64,000 bases of DNA, from contig JBGTNQ010000004.1 of NCBI GenBank assembly GCA_041742965.1, positions 716 to 64,715 of the forward strand, given 5' to 3'. Below the pieces are notes generated by a model, which was given only the letters and a program-made list of their open reading frames with translations, ran no database searches and had not been told where the DNA came from. The stretch is from Minisyncoccia bacterium. Lineage in GTDB: Bacteria; Patescibacteriota; Minisyncoccia; Phycocordibacterales; Zambryskibacteraceae. Made by a program: the position numbers and the translations under genes. Below are positions 1 through 59,958 of this stretch, piece by piece (within the stretch, counting starts at the first letter, position 1; each line of letters begins with the position of its first letter).

Positions 1-75
1 GAGTGGTTTAAATCAACGGTTTACTAAACCGTCGTTCCTTAACTGGGACCGTGAGTTCGAATCTCACCGCCTCCG
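1..75 (+). tRNA. Partial tRNA (3' two-thirds), class II-like with long variable arm, cut by the window start. Anticodon loop reads UUACUAA, formally anticodon ACU, which is unusual. Amino-acid identity uncertain.
   Basis: T-arm gtgag/TTCGAAT/ctcac at 51-67. Acceptor 3' strand cgcctcc at 68-74. Anticodon stem acggt/accgt at 16-20 and 28-32. 18-nt variable region. CCA not encoded. Confidence 0.45.
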
Positions 76-237
76 CAACGACCGGCAAAGATAGCCGGGG
101 GCTATCTGAGTCGGGTGTCGTTTCGAGAGTAAGGTGAGATTCGAAAGACGGAGTCCGCCTCAGGCGGACGAGTCCGGGCAGGAGCCACACAATATTTTAA
201 GAGCAAAGCGAATTAAAATATTGATGTGAGCTGACGC

Positions 238-774: not shown

Positions 775-2961
775 ATGGATTTAGAGACCCCCATCAAAAA
801 TATTGCCCGCCTACTTCCTGCGCAGGAAAAAGCATTAAAAAAACTTCGCATAGAAAAAGTTGGCGACATACTATATCACTTCCCTACTCGCTATGGAGAT
901 GTGGCGAGTAAAATGAACATAGGAGAACTAAGCGCCGGAGACAGTGCGGTCGTATTTGGCACGATAAGCAACCTCAAAACCAAAAAAGCTTTTCACAAAG
1001 GGACCCCGATGGCAGAAGGAGAACTCCAAGACGAAACAGGGAAAATAAAAATTATTTGGTTCCATCAGGCATACCTAGCCAAAATGATCACCGAAGGATC
1101 TCTGGTTCGAGTAGAAGGTAAAGTTTCAGAAAGAAAAGGCCTTCTCTCTATAATGAATCCTAAAATTGAAAGTGTATCAAAAGCACCGTTGGCCGTCGGA
1201 GGATCTCTCTTTGGCGAAGAAGGAGTGCCTGAGCATGCTCTATATCCTGTTTATCCAGAAAGTAGGGGTGTTACATCAAACTGGATGTATCACTGTCTGC
1301 AAAAAATATTCAAATCTGGAATTCTAGAAAATGTAGTTGACCCAGTTCCAGAAGATATATTAAAAAAATACAAACTTCCAAGTCTCAAAACGGCATTGAT
1401 TTGGGTACATACCCCCAGAAAACAAGATGACGCTATGTCTGCGAGAAAAAGATTCGCATTTGAGGAAATATTTTTCATACAACTAAGAAGACAAAAGGAC
1501 AAAAGCACGTGGCGAAACCACCAAGCATTTTTAATATCTGCAGACAGAAAAAAAATAGAGCCCTTAATTTCTAGATTTCCATTTCCCCTTACCAAAGCCC
1601 AAGAGAGATCAATTGATTCTATACTTGAGGATTTTAAGAAGCCGTATCCCATGTCACGGCTCCTAGAAGGAGATGTGGGCAGTGGCAAAACAGCTGTGGC
1701 TGCAGCGATAGCATATGCTGTCATCACCACAAGGCCAAACAAGGACCCCTTGGACAGCGCTCAGGGCAAGCAAGACTTCGGGGCTCTTCAGGTTGCATAT
1801 ATGGCACCGACAGAAATATTAGCAAGCCAACACTTTGAATCATTTATAGAATACTTCAAAGATTCTGATATCTCTGTCGGATTAATCACTGGAAGTGGAT
1901 GTAGGAAATTCCCATCTAAAGTTAATCCTTCTGGATGGACTGACATATCCAGAGCCCAGCTACTAAAATGGGTAGCTAATGGAGAAATACCAATACTCGT
2001 CGGCACACATGCACTTATACAGAAAACTGTAAAATTCAAACACCTCGGATTAGTTGTAATAGACGAACAACATAGATTTGGAACTGCCCAAAGACAAAAA
2101 TTGAGAGAAAAAGAAGGTATTCTTCCCCACCTTCTTTCAATGACCGCGACTCCAATACCCAGAACTCTGGCTCTTACCATATATGGCGATCTTGATTTAA
2201 GCCTACTGGACGAGCTACCCTCCGGACGAAGAAATATAGAAACAGAAATCGTCTTACCTCAAAACAGAGAAAGAACTTATGAACATATCCGCAAAGAAAT
2301 AGGGGCAGGAAGACAGGCTTATGTTATTTGCCCACGCATTAATGAGCCAGATCCGGATAAAGAAAAAGCCATCCTCGCTAAATCCGTCACCGAAGAGGCC
2401 AAGAGGCTCAAAAAAGAAGTGTTCAAGGAATTTGAAATCGGAGTTCTACACGGGAAGATGACACCGAAGAAAAAAGATGAAGTAATGGGTGACTTTGCTT
2501 CTGGTAAAATTCAAATTCTTATAGCGACTTCAGTAGTAGAGGTGGGTGTAAATGTGCCAAATGCTACAGTAATAATCATTGAGGGTGGAGAGCGTTTTGG
2601 TCTAGCGCAACTACACCAACTTCGCGGACGAGTAATGAGAAGCAGTCACCAACCATATTGTTTTATATTCGCAGAAACAAAAAGCCAAAAATCTATTGAA
2701 AGACTGCGGGCCATAATGAAAGCCAAAAATGGTTTTGAACTTGCTGAGTATGACTTGGCCCAGCGTGGAGCCGGAGACTTAACTGGCAAAAAACAGTGGG
2801 GGCTCACTGACCTTGGGATGGAAGCGATAAAAAACATAAGGATGGTAGAGGCTGCCCGCACTGAAGCAGAAAAATTAATCAGTGCTGACCCAGAACTCAA
2901 AACATATCCGACCCTACAGAAAGAATTGACCGGGTCAAGAGAGTCTATTCATTTTGAGTAG
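775..2961 (+). CDS. recG: ATP-dependent DNA helicase RecG
   Basis: 728 aa. Walker A GDVGSGKT. DEQHRFG motif (RecG-type, not Mfd). Motif MTATPIPRTLALTIYGDLDLS. N-terminal wedge-like domain. Confidence 0.85.
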   Translation: MDLETPIKNIARLLPAQEKALKKLRIEKVGDILYHFPTRYGDVASKMNIGELSAGDSAVVFGTISNLKTKKAFHKGTPMAEGELQDETGKIKIIWFHQAYLAKMITEGSLVRVEGKVSERKGLLSIMNPKIESVSKAPLAVGGSLFGEEGVPEHALYPVYPESRGVTSNWMYHCLQKIFKSGILENVVDPVPEDILKKYKLPSLKTALIWVHTPRKQDDAMSARKRFAFEEIFFIQLRRQKDKSTWRNHQAFLISADRKKIEPLISRFPFPLTKAQERSIDSILEDFKKPYPMSRLLEGDVGSGKTAVAAAIAYAVITTRPNKDPLDSAQGKQDFGALQVAYMAPTEILASQHFESFIEYFKDSDISVGLITGSGCRKFPSKVNPSGWTDISRAQLLKWVANGEIPILVGTHALIQKTVKFKHLGLVVIDEQHRFGTAQRQKLREKEGILPHLLSMTATPIPRTLALTIYGDLDLSLLDELPSGRRNIETEIVLPQNRERTYEHIRKEIGAGRQAYVICPRINEPDPDKEKAILAKSVTEEAKRLKKEVFKEFEIGVLHGKMTPKKKDEVMGDFASGKIQILIATSVVEVGVNVPNATVIIIEGGERFGLAQLHQLRGRVMRSSHQPYCFIFAETKSQKSIERLRAIMKAKNGFELAEYDLAQRGAGDLTGKKQWGLTDLGMEAIKNIRMVEAARTEAEKLISADPELKTYPTLQKELTGSRESIHFE

Positions 2962-3005
2962 CTTTTCCTTAACAAAATCATGTAGTATGGTATTGAAATC
3001 ACAAA

Positions 3006-3079
3006 CCGCCCTTAGCTCAGTTGGTTAGAGCACAGAGCTTATACCTCTGGGGTCCCAGGTTCAAATCCTGGAGGGCGGA
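3006..3079 (+). tRNA. tRNA-Ile with anticodon UAU (reads AUA)
   Basis: Cloverleaf: acceptor ccgccct/agggcgg, D-arm gctc-agttggtta-gagc, anticodon stem cagag/ctctg with loop CTTATAC, T-arm ccagg/TTCAAAT/cctgg, discriminator A. CCA not encoded. Confidence 0.75.
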
Positions 3080-3204
3080 CTACTGTAATGCCCTAGCGCA
3101 TCCTTTTGCTCAAGCAAAAGGGAGCAGGGATTTGAAGCCTTTCTTCAGATTTTTTAGAGTAAGAGCGAATAAAAAATCGAAAAAGGGAACTGAGTCTGTA
3201 AGAC

Positions 3205-3223
3205 TCAAATCCTGGAGGGCGGA
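3205..3223 (+). repeat. Exact 19-nt direct repeat of the tRNA-Ile 3' end (T-loop to acceptor end)
   Basis: caaatcctggagggcggac is identical to 3062-3080. Confidence 0.6.
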
Positions 3224-3238
3224 CTTTGAAATCATTCA

Positions 3239-3279
3239 TATACCTCTGGGGTCCTTGGTTCAAATCCAAGAGGGCGGAC
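3239..3279 (+). repeat. 41-nt copy of the tRNA-Ile 3' half (anticodon loop to 3' end) with compensatory T-stem substitutions
   Basis: atacctctggggtcc-cttgg-ttcaaatcc-aag-agggcggac versus native ccagg/cctgg. Both T-stem strands changed so that pairing is kept. Confidence 0.6.
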
Positions 3280-3408
3280 CAGACAAAACCCAACACGCCA
3301 ATGGGTTGGCGTGTTGGAGGCAATACACATCCCCAGTAGCACGGGCGGTTGTATGGGTTTTTCTTTGGTATAATAAAAACAGCTTTATTAATAGGTAATA
3401 TAGATAAT

Positions 3409-3627
3409 ATGAAATTACACAAAATAGCTTGGGTCCTTCTCATAATTGGAGGTATCAACTGGCTTTTGATTGGCGTTATTGGTTGGGGGGTTGAAGATCT
3501 AGTAGGAATGCAAATCGCTAGAATCATATATGTACTTGTTGGAGTATCCGCCGTATATGAGCTTTTCACTCACAAGAATAACTGCAAGGATTGTGTAGCG
3601 AAGGCGCCTTCTCAGCCACAAATGTAA
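3409..3627 (+). CDS. DUF378-family small membrane protein
   Basis: MKLHKIAWVLLIIGGINWLLIGVIGW matches the DUF378 N-terminal signature. Start moved to the internal ATG at 3409; the upstream part of the tracked ORF overlaps tRNA repeats. Confidence 0.55.
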   Translation: MKLHKIAWVLLIIGGINWLLIGVIGWGVEDLVGMQIARIIYVLVGVSAVYELFTHKNNCKDCVAKAPSQPQM

Positions 3628-3640
3628 TTTAGGTTTATTC

Positions 3641-3689
3641 AAAACCCCCACCGCCTAGGCGGTGGGGGTTTTGTTTTATTTTTTTTTAA
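3641..3689. terminator. Bidirectional intrinsic terminator
   Basis: aaaacccccaccgcc-tagg-cggtgggggtttt, flanked by A-run and T-run. Lies between convergent genes. Confidence 0.6.
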
Positions 3690-3693
3690 ATAT

Positions 3694-4191
3694 CTATCTA
3701 ACAAACTCAAAAGAAGAAATAAAGTCTTCTATTACAGCATTAGAAAAGATCCGATTGTCCCAATCTGGTGGAACATCGTTAGGATACGAATAAGTAAATA
3801 CATGTGTTTGATTTCTCGTAATCTCTATTCCGGCACCGGGACCACCAAATTCCATTGACATTCTTTCTATTTCTTCCCATTTTGCAATGGTGCTCGCCGA
3901 CACAGCCACTAATGGAGATGTTTTAAACCAACCCTCACTTTCTGTTGGAAAAATAAAATACACAATAAATACATCGTCCTTAATCTCCTCATCTACACCA
4001 TAACCCTGCCAAGAAGACGGTGGGGTCAATCTAAAACCAAATGTTGAATTTGTGTAAACAGCAGGCGTAACATCTTGTTGTGTATTAAGGGATTTATCTG
4101 AGACTCGTTCATCAGATCGAGTCAAAAATACAAAACCAATCACAACCAACAAAACAATCAGCGAAAGTAACCAAAACCACTTTTTATTCAT
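3694..4191 (-). CDS. Hypothetical membrane-anchored protein
   Basis: 165 aa with N-terminal TM segment. No family recognised. Confidence 0.4.
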   Translation of the reverse strand: MNKKWFWLLSLIVLLVVIGFVFLTRSDERVSDKSLNTQQDVTPAVYTNSTFGFRLTPPSSWQGYGVDEEIKDDVFIVYFIFPTESEGWFKTSPLVAVSASTIAKWEEIERMSMEFGGPGAGIEITRNQTHVFTYSYPNDVPPDWDNRIFSNAVIEDFISSFEFVR

Positions 4192-6790: not shown

Positions 6791-7193
6791 GGGGGTGAAT
6801 TGCTTAGACAAAGAAGTCCCCTTGAAATACGCGAGAGAGAGCTGTGGTGACTCTTAAATCCGCCACAAATGACTAAATGCAAACAGCATCGTCGCACGAG
6901 CAAAGTCGGTAGTTTCTCCATATTTTGGAGCTAAGGATTTCGCTTTCGCTTACGCTTCGGCCTAAGTGACATCAACCCTTGTGAAGTCTGTTAGCGAGGT
7001 GTTGGTGTAATATTTTCGGACTCTAGGAAATACCCGCTCCAGTATTTTCTGAACTGTAGGAGCTCGATAATGTGGGGTTTTGTTTACTTTCAACCCACAT
7101 TATTTAAATCGCTTCGGCGAATGAGGTAAACTACCTCTCGTAGAAGTATTTCAAGGGTTTCTTTGCACGGGAGCTCAATACTCCCCACCTCCA
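6791..7193 (+). ncRNA. ssrA: tmRNA (SsrA), one-piece
   Basis: Immediately downstream of smpB. 5' GGGGGUG pairs with 3' CACCUCC, giving a 7-bp acceptor stem with a G3:U70 wobble (alanine identity), then discriminator A. T-arm-like gggag/CUCAAUA/ctccc at 7169-7185. Ala-rich tag-like frame ending AKDFAFAYASA then stop at 6963-6965, with a candidate GCA resume codon at 6879. Terminator follows. Confidence 0.65.
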
Positions 7194-7275
7194 CAAAAAT
7201 AAGGAACGAAGTGACTATATTTTTGTAGGACTCCGCTTCGCAGCGCGAAGCGGAGTAACACAATTTTAAAAAAAC

Positions 7276-59691: not shown

Positions 59692-59958
59692 ATGTTCTAT
59701 ACGTATGTACTTCGATCTAAAAAAGATTCAAAGTTGTACATTGGTTGCACAAAAGATTTAAAAGTTAGATTTGAGGAACATAACGCTGGGTATTCTTCAG
59801 CAACAAGTAAAAGAGGTCCGTTTCAACTTGTTTATTACGAAGCTTGTTGTGACAAGAAAGACGCGTTGCGACGGGAGAGATATCTGAAAACTACCTATGG
59901 TGGAAGATATCTCAAAAATCGCCTCAAATCTTATTTCACAGGGTACTCAATTTTATAA
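59692..59958 (+). CDS. GIY-YIG nuclease family small protein
   Basis: YTYVLRS...LYIGCT (GIY-YIG), R and E catalytic residues. 88 aa. Confidence 0.65.
   Translation: MFYTYVLRSKKDSKLYIGCTKDLKVRFEEHNAGYSSATSKRGPFQLVYYEACCDKKDALRRERYLKTTYGGRYLKNRLKSYFTGYSIL

Follow-up and report, generated by a model that had tools for sequence, protein, structure and literature searches.

Putative small non-coding insertions at the 3' side of a tRNA-Ile(UAU) gene in a Paceibacteria chromosome

The stretch of DNA considered here, 64,000 nucleotides (nt) of contig JBGTNQ010000004.1 from a Minisyncoccia bacterium (in the following called the window), is a housekeeping part of a Paceibacteria chromosome (Patescibacteria; Candidate Phyla Radiation (CPR)) and carries recG (775-2961), a tRNA-Ile(UAU) gene, a DUF378 gene, ftsH, smpB, the gene of the transfer-messenger RNA (tmRNA), ribosomal protein genes, the gene of EF-Tu and secY. 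The tRNA-Ile(UAU) gene starts 45 nt past the stop codon of recG and is followed by two partial copies of its own 3' portion in direct orientation, designated copy A and copy B, with spacers of 124 nt between the tRNA and copy A and of 13 nt between copy A and copy B (Table 1). An earlier sequence-only reading had regarded both copies as attachment-site (att) scars of integrated elements that were themselves lost. That reading is right in its geometry and wrong about the lost elements; the present analysis deals with the origin of the two copies and with a structured element of which copy A is a part.

Both copies are real. The repeat pair 3061-3081 and 3205-3225 is identical at 21/21 positions; copy A had been described as an exact copy of 19 nt (3205-3223), which was correct as to its existence and too short as to its length. 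The second repeat pair, 3040-3080 and 3239-3279, matches at 37/41 positions (90%), so that the 41-nt copy from the anticodon loop to the 3' end stands as it was first described. By direct reading, all four differences of copy B lie in the T stem (ccagg/cctgg changed to cttgg/ccaag) and both strands still pair, as had been noted before. A 23-nt probe with up to 3 mismatches found only the tRNA and the two copies in the 64 kb and matched none of 100 shuffles of the window, so that the number expected by chance is 0. Copy A starts within the T loop and copy B with the first anticodon base, that is, at the two classic sublocations of tRNA genes that had been recognised at the outset. In the intact tRNA-Ile, the part from the anticodon TATA (3040-3043) on is of the CCAGG/CCTGG T-stem allele.

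Table 1. Features on the 3' side of the tRNA-Ile(UAU) gene in the window.
Feature	Position	Strand	Basis
tRNA-Ile(UAU), intact	3006-3080	+	ARAGORN call (anticodon tat); Rfam tRNA model, 70.5 bits over 3006-3079
Trailer 'tactgtaat'	3081-3089	+	direct reading; similar to the trailer of the inner tRNA of L003 ('tatgtaat..')
tRNA-trailing structured element	~3090-3225 (~135 nt)	+	covariance model R2, RNAalifold, pair counts, fold z-score
Copy A, 21-nt exact copy, tRNA T loop to one base past the 3' end	3205-3225	+	
Junction spacer ttgaaatcattca, RTTCA at its end, directly before TATA	3226-3238	+	
Copy B, displaced original 3' half (anticodon to 3' end), CTTGG/CCAAG	3239-3279	+	
12-bp perfect hairpin 3' of copy B	3290-3301 / 3306-3317	+	repeat search

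For comparison, 79 loci were collected via RecG from species-representative genomes and 80 from metagenomes (about 160 loci), and a tRNA-Ile(UAU) gene is carried by 97 of the sampled related loci; these loci are given L numbers below. In at least nine relatives the tRNA lies 26-59 nt after recG on the same strand. When the present 5' half of the window gene is joined to copy B, the reconstruction is identical at 75/75 positions to the functional tRNA of L059 and differs by 1 nt from the tRNAs of L012, L079 and L113. Its CTTGG/CCAAG pair is the commonest T stem (26/55 C1-type tRNAs), and copy B itself matches a tRNA-Ile profile over positions 32-74 (nhmmer, E 1e-8). Because the reconstruction equals the L059 gene and the distance to recG is ancestral, the resident part is the 5' half, and the present 3' half is an import. 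The comparison of alleles and positions likewise suggests that the native 3' half was pushed to the right and still lies beside the original downstream hairpin. By sequence comparison, copy B is thus the former 3' half of this very gene, and a foreign 3' half appears to have been spliced in at the anticodon TATA. It had been proposed that copy B derives from a different tRNA-Ile allele; it does represent a different functional allele, but this allele is the native one and not that of an inserted element. The hairpin behind copy B has no U run on the plus strand; it probably belonged to the tRNA gene from the start, as its 3' flank or terminator. The alleles nearest to the present window tRNA were found in L003, L044 and L142 (3 differences each) and L040 (4 differences), and among these L003, L044 and L040 have nested or rearranged tRNA loci.

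In five relatives (L003, L040, L044, L054 and L138) the locus is built as 5' half (positions 1-38), spacer, complete tRNA, spacer and 3' half (positions 35-75). The 5' half ends with ..CTTATA and the 3' half starts with TATACC.., so that the two overlap in TATA, which is the anticodon UAU plus A37. Within the nested loci it is the outer halves that pair with one another; L044 has two to three nested levels, and there the acceptor strands match within every outer pair. Since the inner and outer genes are different functional alleles in L054, L044 and L100, the donor DNA is foreign. The DNA between the junctions amounts to 146, 146, 148 (net), 165, 168 and 169 nt, and the inserts have modules in common, namely a left AGTGAG box, CCGAACGA-N5-TTATATA and a right end RTTCA/TATA (the slash marks the junction). 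This right junction is found in the window, in L003 (atcgttca/TATACC) and in L040 (ggtgttca/TATACC), and the sequence RTTCATATACC occurs beside tRNA-Ile pieces only in these three among the about 160 loci scanned. TATA is duplicated at both junctions, and no terminal inverted repeats or conserved half-sites were found in the first or last 45 nt of the inserts; the inverted repeats that are present flank the inner tRNA, not the insert ends. No kilobase insert or recombinase lies between tRNA pieces in any scanned locus, and the neighbours of the nested loci are housekeeping genes, as judged by eye from N-terminal sequences. The anticodon TATA is a recurrent site of insertion.

The nested loci resemble in part the tRNA-dependent lysogeny of actinobacteriophages (Guerrero-Bustamante & Hatfull 2024, PMC10865867): in the five relatives with this architecture the host tRNA stays interrupted at a very short common core, and a complete tRNA of the same isotype comes with the insert. 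They differ in that the insert of 146-169 nt consists of a tRNA with short flanks and holds no phage genome or integrase. The window differs further, as its tRNA is rebuilt from the resident 5' half and no displaced 5' half is present.

Several further observations were made on these loci. The outer halves decay by hairpin insertions in their D and T loops; dead tRNA halves with short hairpin insertions exactly in the D or T loop were seen in L003, L044, L045/L047/L063 and L100, and L044 has one and the same 19-nt palindrome, CCTG(C/T)CTGCCGCAGGCAGG, in its D-loop and its T-loop insertions. The possibility that the outer gene is a functional split or intron-containing tRNA was dropped, given these hairpin insertions and damaged loops. 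Mini-hairpins of the form TCCGCC-NNNN-GGCGGA are recurrent, often in pairs, in many loci, including the window (154-168), L023, L130, L142 and L151. The leader and trailer of the inner tRNA-Ile in L044, L054, L003 and L040 form inverted repeats of 9-31 nt which would lengthen the acceptor helix and which are absent from non-nested tRNAs. In L040 (7015-8600 in tRNA orientation) three units stand in tandem behind the tRNA, each with a TGnTATTAT box resembling a promoter, a piece derived from tRNA-Ile and a small membrane open reading frame (ORF) that starts 6 nt past the tRNA-like 3' end; the pieces of units 2 and 3 have lost the D and anticodon arms and are 'minihelices' of acceptor and T arms only.

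The segment that separates copy A from the tRNA is taken up by a conserved structured element and is no random left-over. In the window its 5' side starts with an acceptor-5'-like GCCCT (3090-3094), followed by a hairpin (3102-3109/3114-3121) and by an inverted T-arm copy, which forms the 5' strand of the closing helix (~3125-3136) and has (~3126-3137) the window-specific A variant of the T loop. An inner helix (~3138-3146/3180-3188) encloses a hairpin with the loop GAG..GCGAA; the conserved GGGAACUGA and a small hairpin (3192-3196/3202-3206) with the invariant loop UGUAA follow. Copy A supplies the closing 3' strand (a T-stem/acceptor-like helix) and the acceptor 3' strand. This assignment is based on the covariance model R2, which was built from eight relatives with the window left out and which has a single match in the 64 kb, at 3123-3223 (60 bits, E 1.2e-14). 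The match begins 43 nt past the tRNA-Ile, the element itself 9 nt past it.

The same architecture recurs in relatives: a complement of the tail of the host gene plus an acceptor strand, a hairpin, and a T-stem 5' strand with ATT(C/T)GAA on the 5' side; an inner helix around a hairpin with a GAG..CGAA loop, the conserved GGGUACUGA and a 5-bp hairpin with the invariant loop UGUAA in the middle; and, at the 3' end, a stretch copied from the host gene, namely the 3' part of the T loop and the 3' strands of the T stem and of the acceptor. The element was found after tRNA-Ser(GCU) in L005, L008, L010, L014, L038 and L111, after tRNA-Ile in L005, L014, L083 and L103 and after the tmRNA gene in L050. 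RNAalifold on six seed sequences gave 19 pairs, 11 of them with compensatory changes. With the covariance model 16 members were obtained at E<=0.01, all of them 26-394 nt downstream of a tRNA or tmRNA gene on the same strand and several in tandem; their hosts are tRNA-Ser, tRNA-Ile or tmRNA genes, and each member mimics the acceptor and T stems of its host. Over these members 93.2% of the cells are paired, compared with 65.2% in shuffles (0/500), double changes occur in 16/19 pairs, and the covariation score is 0.664 versus 0.200, with slid controls at <=0.146, figures that are somewhat generous because the underlying alignment A2 was fitted to the model. The region 3081-3325 of the window folds with a z-score of -5.9.

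Of 180 distinct tRNA or tmRNA genes, 11 have a direct copy of their last 14-16 nt in the 450 nt downstream, and none (0/180) has one upstream. Inverted T-arm copies (20 downstream, 17 upstream) do not discriminate, as the T arm is self-complementary and neighbouring tRNAs interfere. A scan of 2900-3700 against Rfam 15 in E-value mode gave nothing credible in 3081-3320, a scan of the whole window at the Rfam gathering thresholds gave the tRNA and tmRNA only, and E-value-mode scans of the window, L009 and L019 gave no family for the trailing elements. Literature searches yielded no description of nested tRNA-Ile genes or of trailing elements. The element is undescribed, its covariation is strong, and in the sampled loci it is located exclusively at tRNA and tmRNA 3' ends. 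Variable scars had originally been set against a conserved structured RNA: the interpretation as a bare scar is refuted for copy A, which is part of such an element, and the arrangement as a whole is indeed variable among relatives, being present in about 10% of about 97 loci.

On balance, we lean towards the reading that two small non-coding insertions remodelled the 3' side of the tRNA-Ile gene, each regenerating the gene and pushing an older 3' segment downstream. In the anticodon-loop event, a foreign 3' half (CCAGG/CCTGG) with a short trailer ending in ..ATCATTCA would have joined the resident gene at TATA, and the native 3' half would have become copy B, still beside its original downstream hairpin. 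The imported 3' half may have been joined directly at TATA; equally, a complete tRNA cassette may first have been nested as in the relatives, and the outer 5' half may then have been lost by recombination between the two 5' halves, which are identical. In the T-loop event, the ~135-nt structured element would have been placed directly behind the tRNA. With its 5' part complementary to the T loop/T stem and acceptor strand, it closes on itself as a mimic of the acceptor/T minihelix of the host tRNA. It may be a miniature non-autonomous selfish element that enters at the T loop through an identity block or duplication of 18-30 nt and acts as a folded single strand; the enzyme might be a recombinase that acts in trans or one of the small GIY-YIG nucleases found beside tRNA and tmRNA genes in these genomes. 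Both insertions would restore the tRNA while moving an older 3' piece aside, in the manner of attB x attP recombination, the inserted DNA itself being tiny, non-coding and still in place. The anticodon event probably came first, because copy A has the imported allele and is followed by an L003-type trailer, ..atcattca.

Some points weigh against this reading, in addition to the generous pair and covariation figures. Insertion is deduced from diverged relatives: exact-protein look-ups with RecG and DUF378 returned the source contig only, with no near-identical strain, and the closest relative, L081 (83% RecG), has a different synteny and no tRNA after recG. The reading names no enzyme, and the insert ends are without conserved half-sites or terminal inverted repeats. 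It does not explain why the 5' part of the element matches each host tRNA, and the outer 5' half that is seen in relatives is absent from the window. The strong structural conservation and the invariant loops would fit a host-beneficial non-coding RNA (ncRNA) equally well.

Such an ncRNA is a serious rival as far as the element is concerned, even if we hold it to be unlikely. It would be co-transcribed with the tRNA, would itself be processed by RNase P and 3' enzymes and might serve, for example, as a decoy or regulator for a tRNA-binding enzyme, without any mobility; gene conversion and selection would preserve the identity of its acceptor/T-minihelix mimic with the tRNA next to it. The strong covariation, the invariant loops (UGUAA, GGGUACUGA and ..CGAA), the invariable location immediately behind a tRNA or tmRNA gene and on its strand, the very stable folding (z-scores of -5.9 and, for the second element type of the window described below, -8.4) and the match of the stems to the host gene, including the lineage-specific A/G variant of the T loop, all agree with this explanation. 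However, the element is patchy even among genomes with identical tRNAs (L010, L128 and L103 differ), it forms tandem arrays and truncated copies such as those after tRNA-Ile in L005 and in L050, the same core stands behind three unrelated genes, and the covariance model finds one copy only in the 64-kb window. Copy B and the nested genes are also left without explanation.

A selfish element is favoured because of this patchy distribution among genomes with identical tRNAs, the tandem arrays and the truncated copies. As a tentative proposal, which we regard as possible, the ~135-nt element could be a new class of miniature selfish element or tRNA-like RNA that parasitises tRNA and tmRNA 3' ends and moves as a folded single strand; together with the tRNA cassettes of 146-169 nt at TATA, it would bring about serial replacement of tRNA-Ile(UAU) alleles in Paceibacteria without an integrase island. 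Small palindromic insertion elements are known from reduced genomes, for example the Rickettsia palindromic elements, the Correia elements and miniature inverted-repeat transposable elements (MITEs). Like these, the element is 100-170 nt long, non-coding, hairpin-structured, patchy and found in tandem copies. In contrast to them, its termini are copies of the acceptor and T strands of the host tRNA rather than conserved terminal inverted repeats, and in the sampled loci it occurs only at tRNA and tmRNA 3' ends.

Free-standing GIY-YIG homing endonucleases, such as SegB in the tRNA cluster of phage T4, suggest a further explanation, intronless homing: a free-standing GIY-YIG endonuclease associated with a resistant allele of tRNA-Ile would cut the resident allele, and imprecise repair of the double-strand break would copy the donor tRNA and leave partial duplicates, which would supply an enzymatic route for the anticodon-class events. 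Small GIY-YIG ORFs of ~75-82 amino acids (aa) were observed in the window (59692-59925), in L001 (97-318, just left of the window and beside tRNA-Ser) and in L100, L083, L014, L025, L023, L048, L063 and L047, and in 9/14 cases they lie <=160 nt from a tRNA or tmRNA gene on the same strand. In L100 an 82-aa GIY-YIG ORF overlaps a G1-type tRNA-Ile at its start, and a decaying resident copy of the C1 type follows this tRNA directly; the ORF-tRNA overlap is the same in L083, the stop codon lying over the first tRNA-Ile bases in both. The proximity of the ORFs to tRNA and tmRNA genes and the ORF-linked allele beside a decaying resident in L100 are what this case has in common with SegB-type homing. 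No GIY-YIG gene was found within 10 kb of the nested loci of L003, L040, L044, L054 and L138 or beside the window tRNA-Ile, however. Moreover, clean homing replaces the allele; it does not leave nested halves whose junctions lie exactly at TATA and whose sizes are discrete. We consider homing quite doubtful.

Classical att scars would require two integrase-borne islands or prophages at both sublocations that were later almost wholly deleted, leaving their attL/attR blocks. Islands and prophages of tyrosine integrases occupy tRNA and tmRNA genes at anticodon-loop and T-loop sublocations (Islander, PMC4383910). The intact tRNA, the displaced 3' fragments in direct orientation, the Williams-type sublocation geometry, the origin of copy B from another allele and the slight extension of the copy A block past the tRNA end, as is often the case for att blocks, are all in line with this explanation. 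As in integrase islands (PMC4383910), the tRNA is regenerated, the displaced direct fragment runs from the anticodon or T loop to the 3' end or just past it, and tmRNA genes, here in relatives, are targets as well. The loci differ from such islands in having no integrase and no cargo, in inserts of 13-170 nt, in the displaced 5' halves of relatives and in an element whose 5' part is complementary to the host tRNA.

Loss of formerly large elements, as assumed by the sequence-only reading, does not agree with the relatives: none of the about 160 loci has an integrase nearby, kilobase DNA between tRNA and fragment or, indeed, more than ~170 nt between such copies, and the insert sizes are discrete (146-148 or 165-169 nt), unlike what independent decay of large elements would leave. 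The DNA between the tRNA and copy A is the conserved element described above and no random remnant, and displaced 5' halves are not produced by attP sites that carry a 3' half. The search for integrase genes elsewhere, which had been recommended, was negative for integrases and transposases in the 20 window ORFs scanned with Pfam. Phage or plasmid elements with the variant 3' half were likewise missing: pattern scans of IMG/VR gave 0 matches to the 3' half of the tRNA, to the junction or to the anticodon arm, a scan for the hairpin motif of the element gave 3 weak chance matches (15-17 bits) with no tRNA nearby, and phage and plasmid BLAST searches returned generic tRNA similarity only. Att scars of this kind are thus improbable. 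Local replication errors alone, that is, slippage or template switching on tRNA hairpins producing direct and inverted partial duplications, are very improbable: the T arm is nearly palindromic, inverted T-arm copies lie downstream (window ~3126-3137; L009, 22 nt) and hairpin insertions accumulate in the D and T loops of dead halves, but copy B and the inner tRNAs of L054, L044 and L100 are other functional alleles with compensatory differences, for which foreign DNA is needed, and the DNA between the copies is homologous across genera and host genes.

Group I introns have been described in tRNA-Asn and tRNA-Asp genes of Patescibacteria (PMC13011429), and they share with the present case the phylum and the anticodon loop as an insertion hot spot. 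They differ in that the window tRNA is uninterrupted and the inserts described here hold a tRNA or a mimic of a tRNA end, with no ribozyme core. The window has no match to Intron_gpI of Rfam, and its tRNA-Ile is contiguous. The apparent intron tRNAs reported by the intron mode of ARAGORN turned out to be tmRNAs (L023, L058), a group-I-like tRNA-Asp (L129) and an N-masked tRNA-Ser; none of them is a tRNA-Ile. In L129 (1525-1833, minus strand) a tRNA-Asp(GUC) has a 234-nt anticodon-loop insert with the group-I-like core ..AAGATATAGTCC.., which lies below the Rfam gathering threshold and is consistent with the published tRNA-Asp group I introns of Patescibacteria (PMC13011429).

Other trailing cores were observed in the same position behind tRNA and tmRNA genes. 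The window begins with the 3' part of a tRNA-Ser(ACU) (1-77), which is followed by a second type of structured element (~126-238) with the core GACGGAG-hairpin-GACGAGTCCGGGC (cf. L001 367-640). It is flanked by an inverted T-arm copy at 133-145 (GGTGAGATTCGAA) and by an 18/19 direct copy, at 239-257, of the segment from the T loop to the 3' end of the tRNA-Ser(ACU); the region 77-262 folds with a z-score of -8.4 and has no Rfam match. The same core, GAG(C/A)CGGAG, the first 5 nt of which are complementary to the last bases of the tRNA, follows tRNA-Ile in L007, L012, L019 (two in tandem), L046, L054, L083, L092 and L103. The third core, GGGGTCGGGAAAC-GGGA-GTTTCCC.. with two hairpins, is located downstream of tRNA-Ile, tRNA-Ser and tmRNA genes (L009 14343-14429, L063 14047-14133, L024 5498-5582, L008 15736-15823, L025 18297-18387), with an inverted T-arm copy on one side and, on the other, a direct copy of the 3' end of the host gene. 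Three other assignments were dropped: the GAGCCGGAG element as domain V of a group II intron (no Rfam match), the CUGUAAG hairpin as a tRNA-Tyr (no D or T arm in canonical order) and integron attC-like sites (no R/L box pattern).

With respect to the tRNA repertoire, tRNA-Ser with the anticodon ACU (A34), which is unusual in bacteria, is present at window 1-77 and in many loci, including L001, L002, L009, L016, L023, L033, L034, L038 and L051, often paired with tRNA-Ser(GCU). AUA is decoded by a tRNA-Ile with a UAU anticodon in the window and in most relatives, and C1-G72 replaces G1-C72 in many lineages. The tmRNA gene of the window (6791-7196, after smpB; Rfam, 101 bits) was missed by the ARAGORN run on the window.

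Displaced tRNA fragments routinely delimit genomic islands and are assumed to be the marks of integrases; in these streamlined genomes inserts of only 100-170 nt give rise to the same signature. One kind brings a complete replacement tRNA into the anticodon loop; the other, folded and conserved, imitates the end of the host tRNA. If they are mobile, these would be the smallest elements known to target tRNA genes, and an essential single-copy tRNA could be replaced horizontally through them. Should the folded element be an RNA, it would represent an undescribed family of tRNA-like ncRNAs with clear covariation. The probability that we are dealing with a novel type of selfish element or ncRNA, one that mimics a tRNA, is substantial, and either way annotation pipelines would take such pieces for island boundaries or tRNA pseudogenes.

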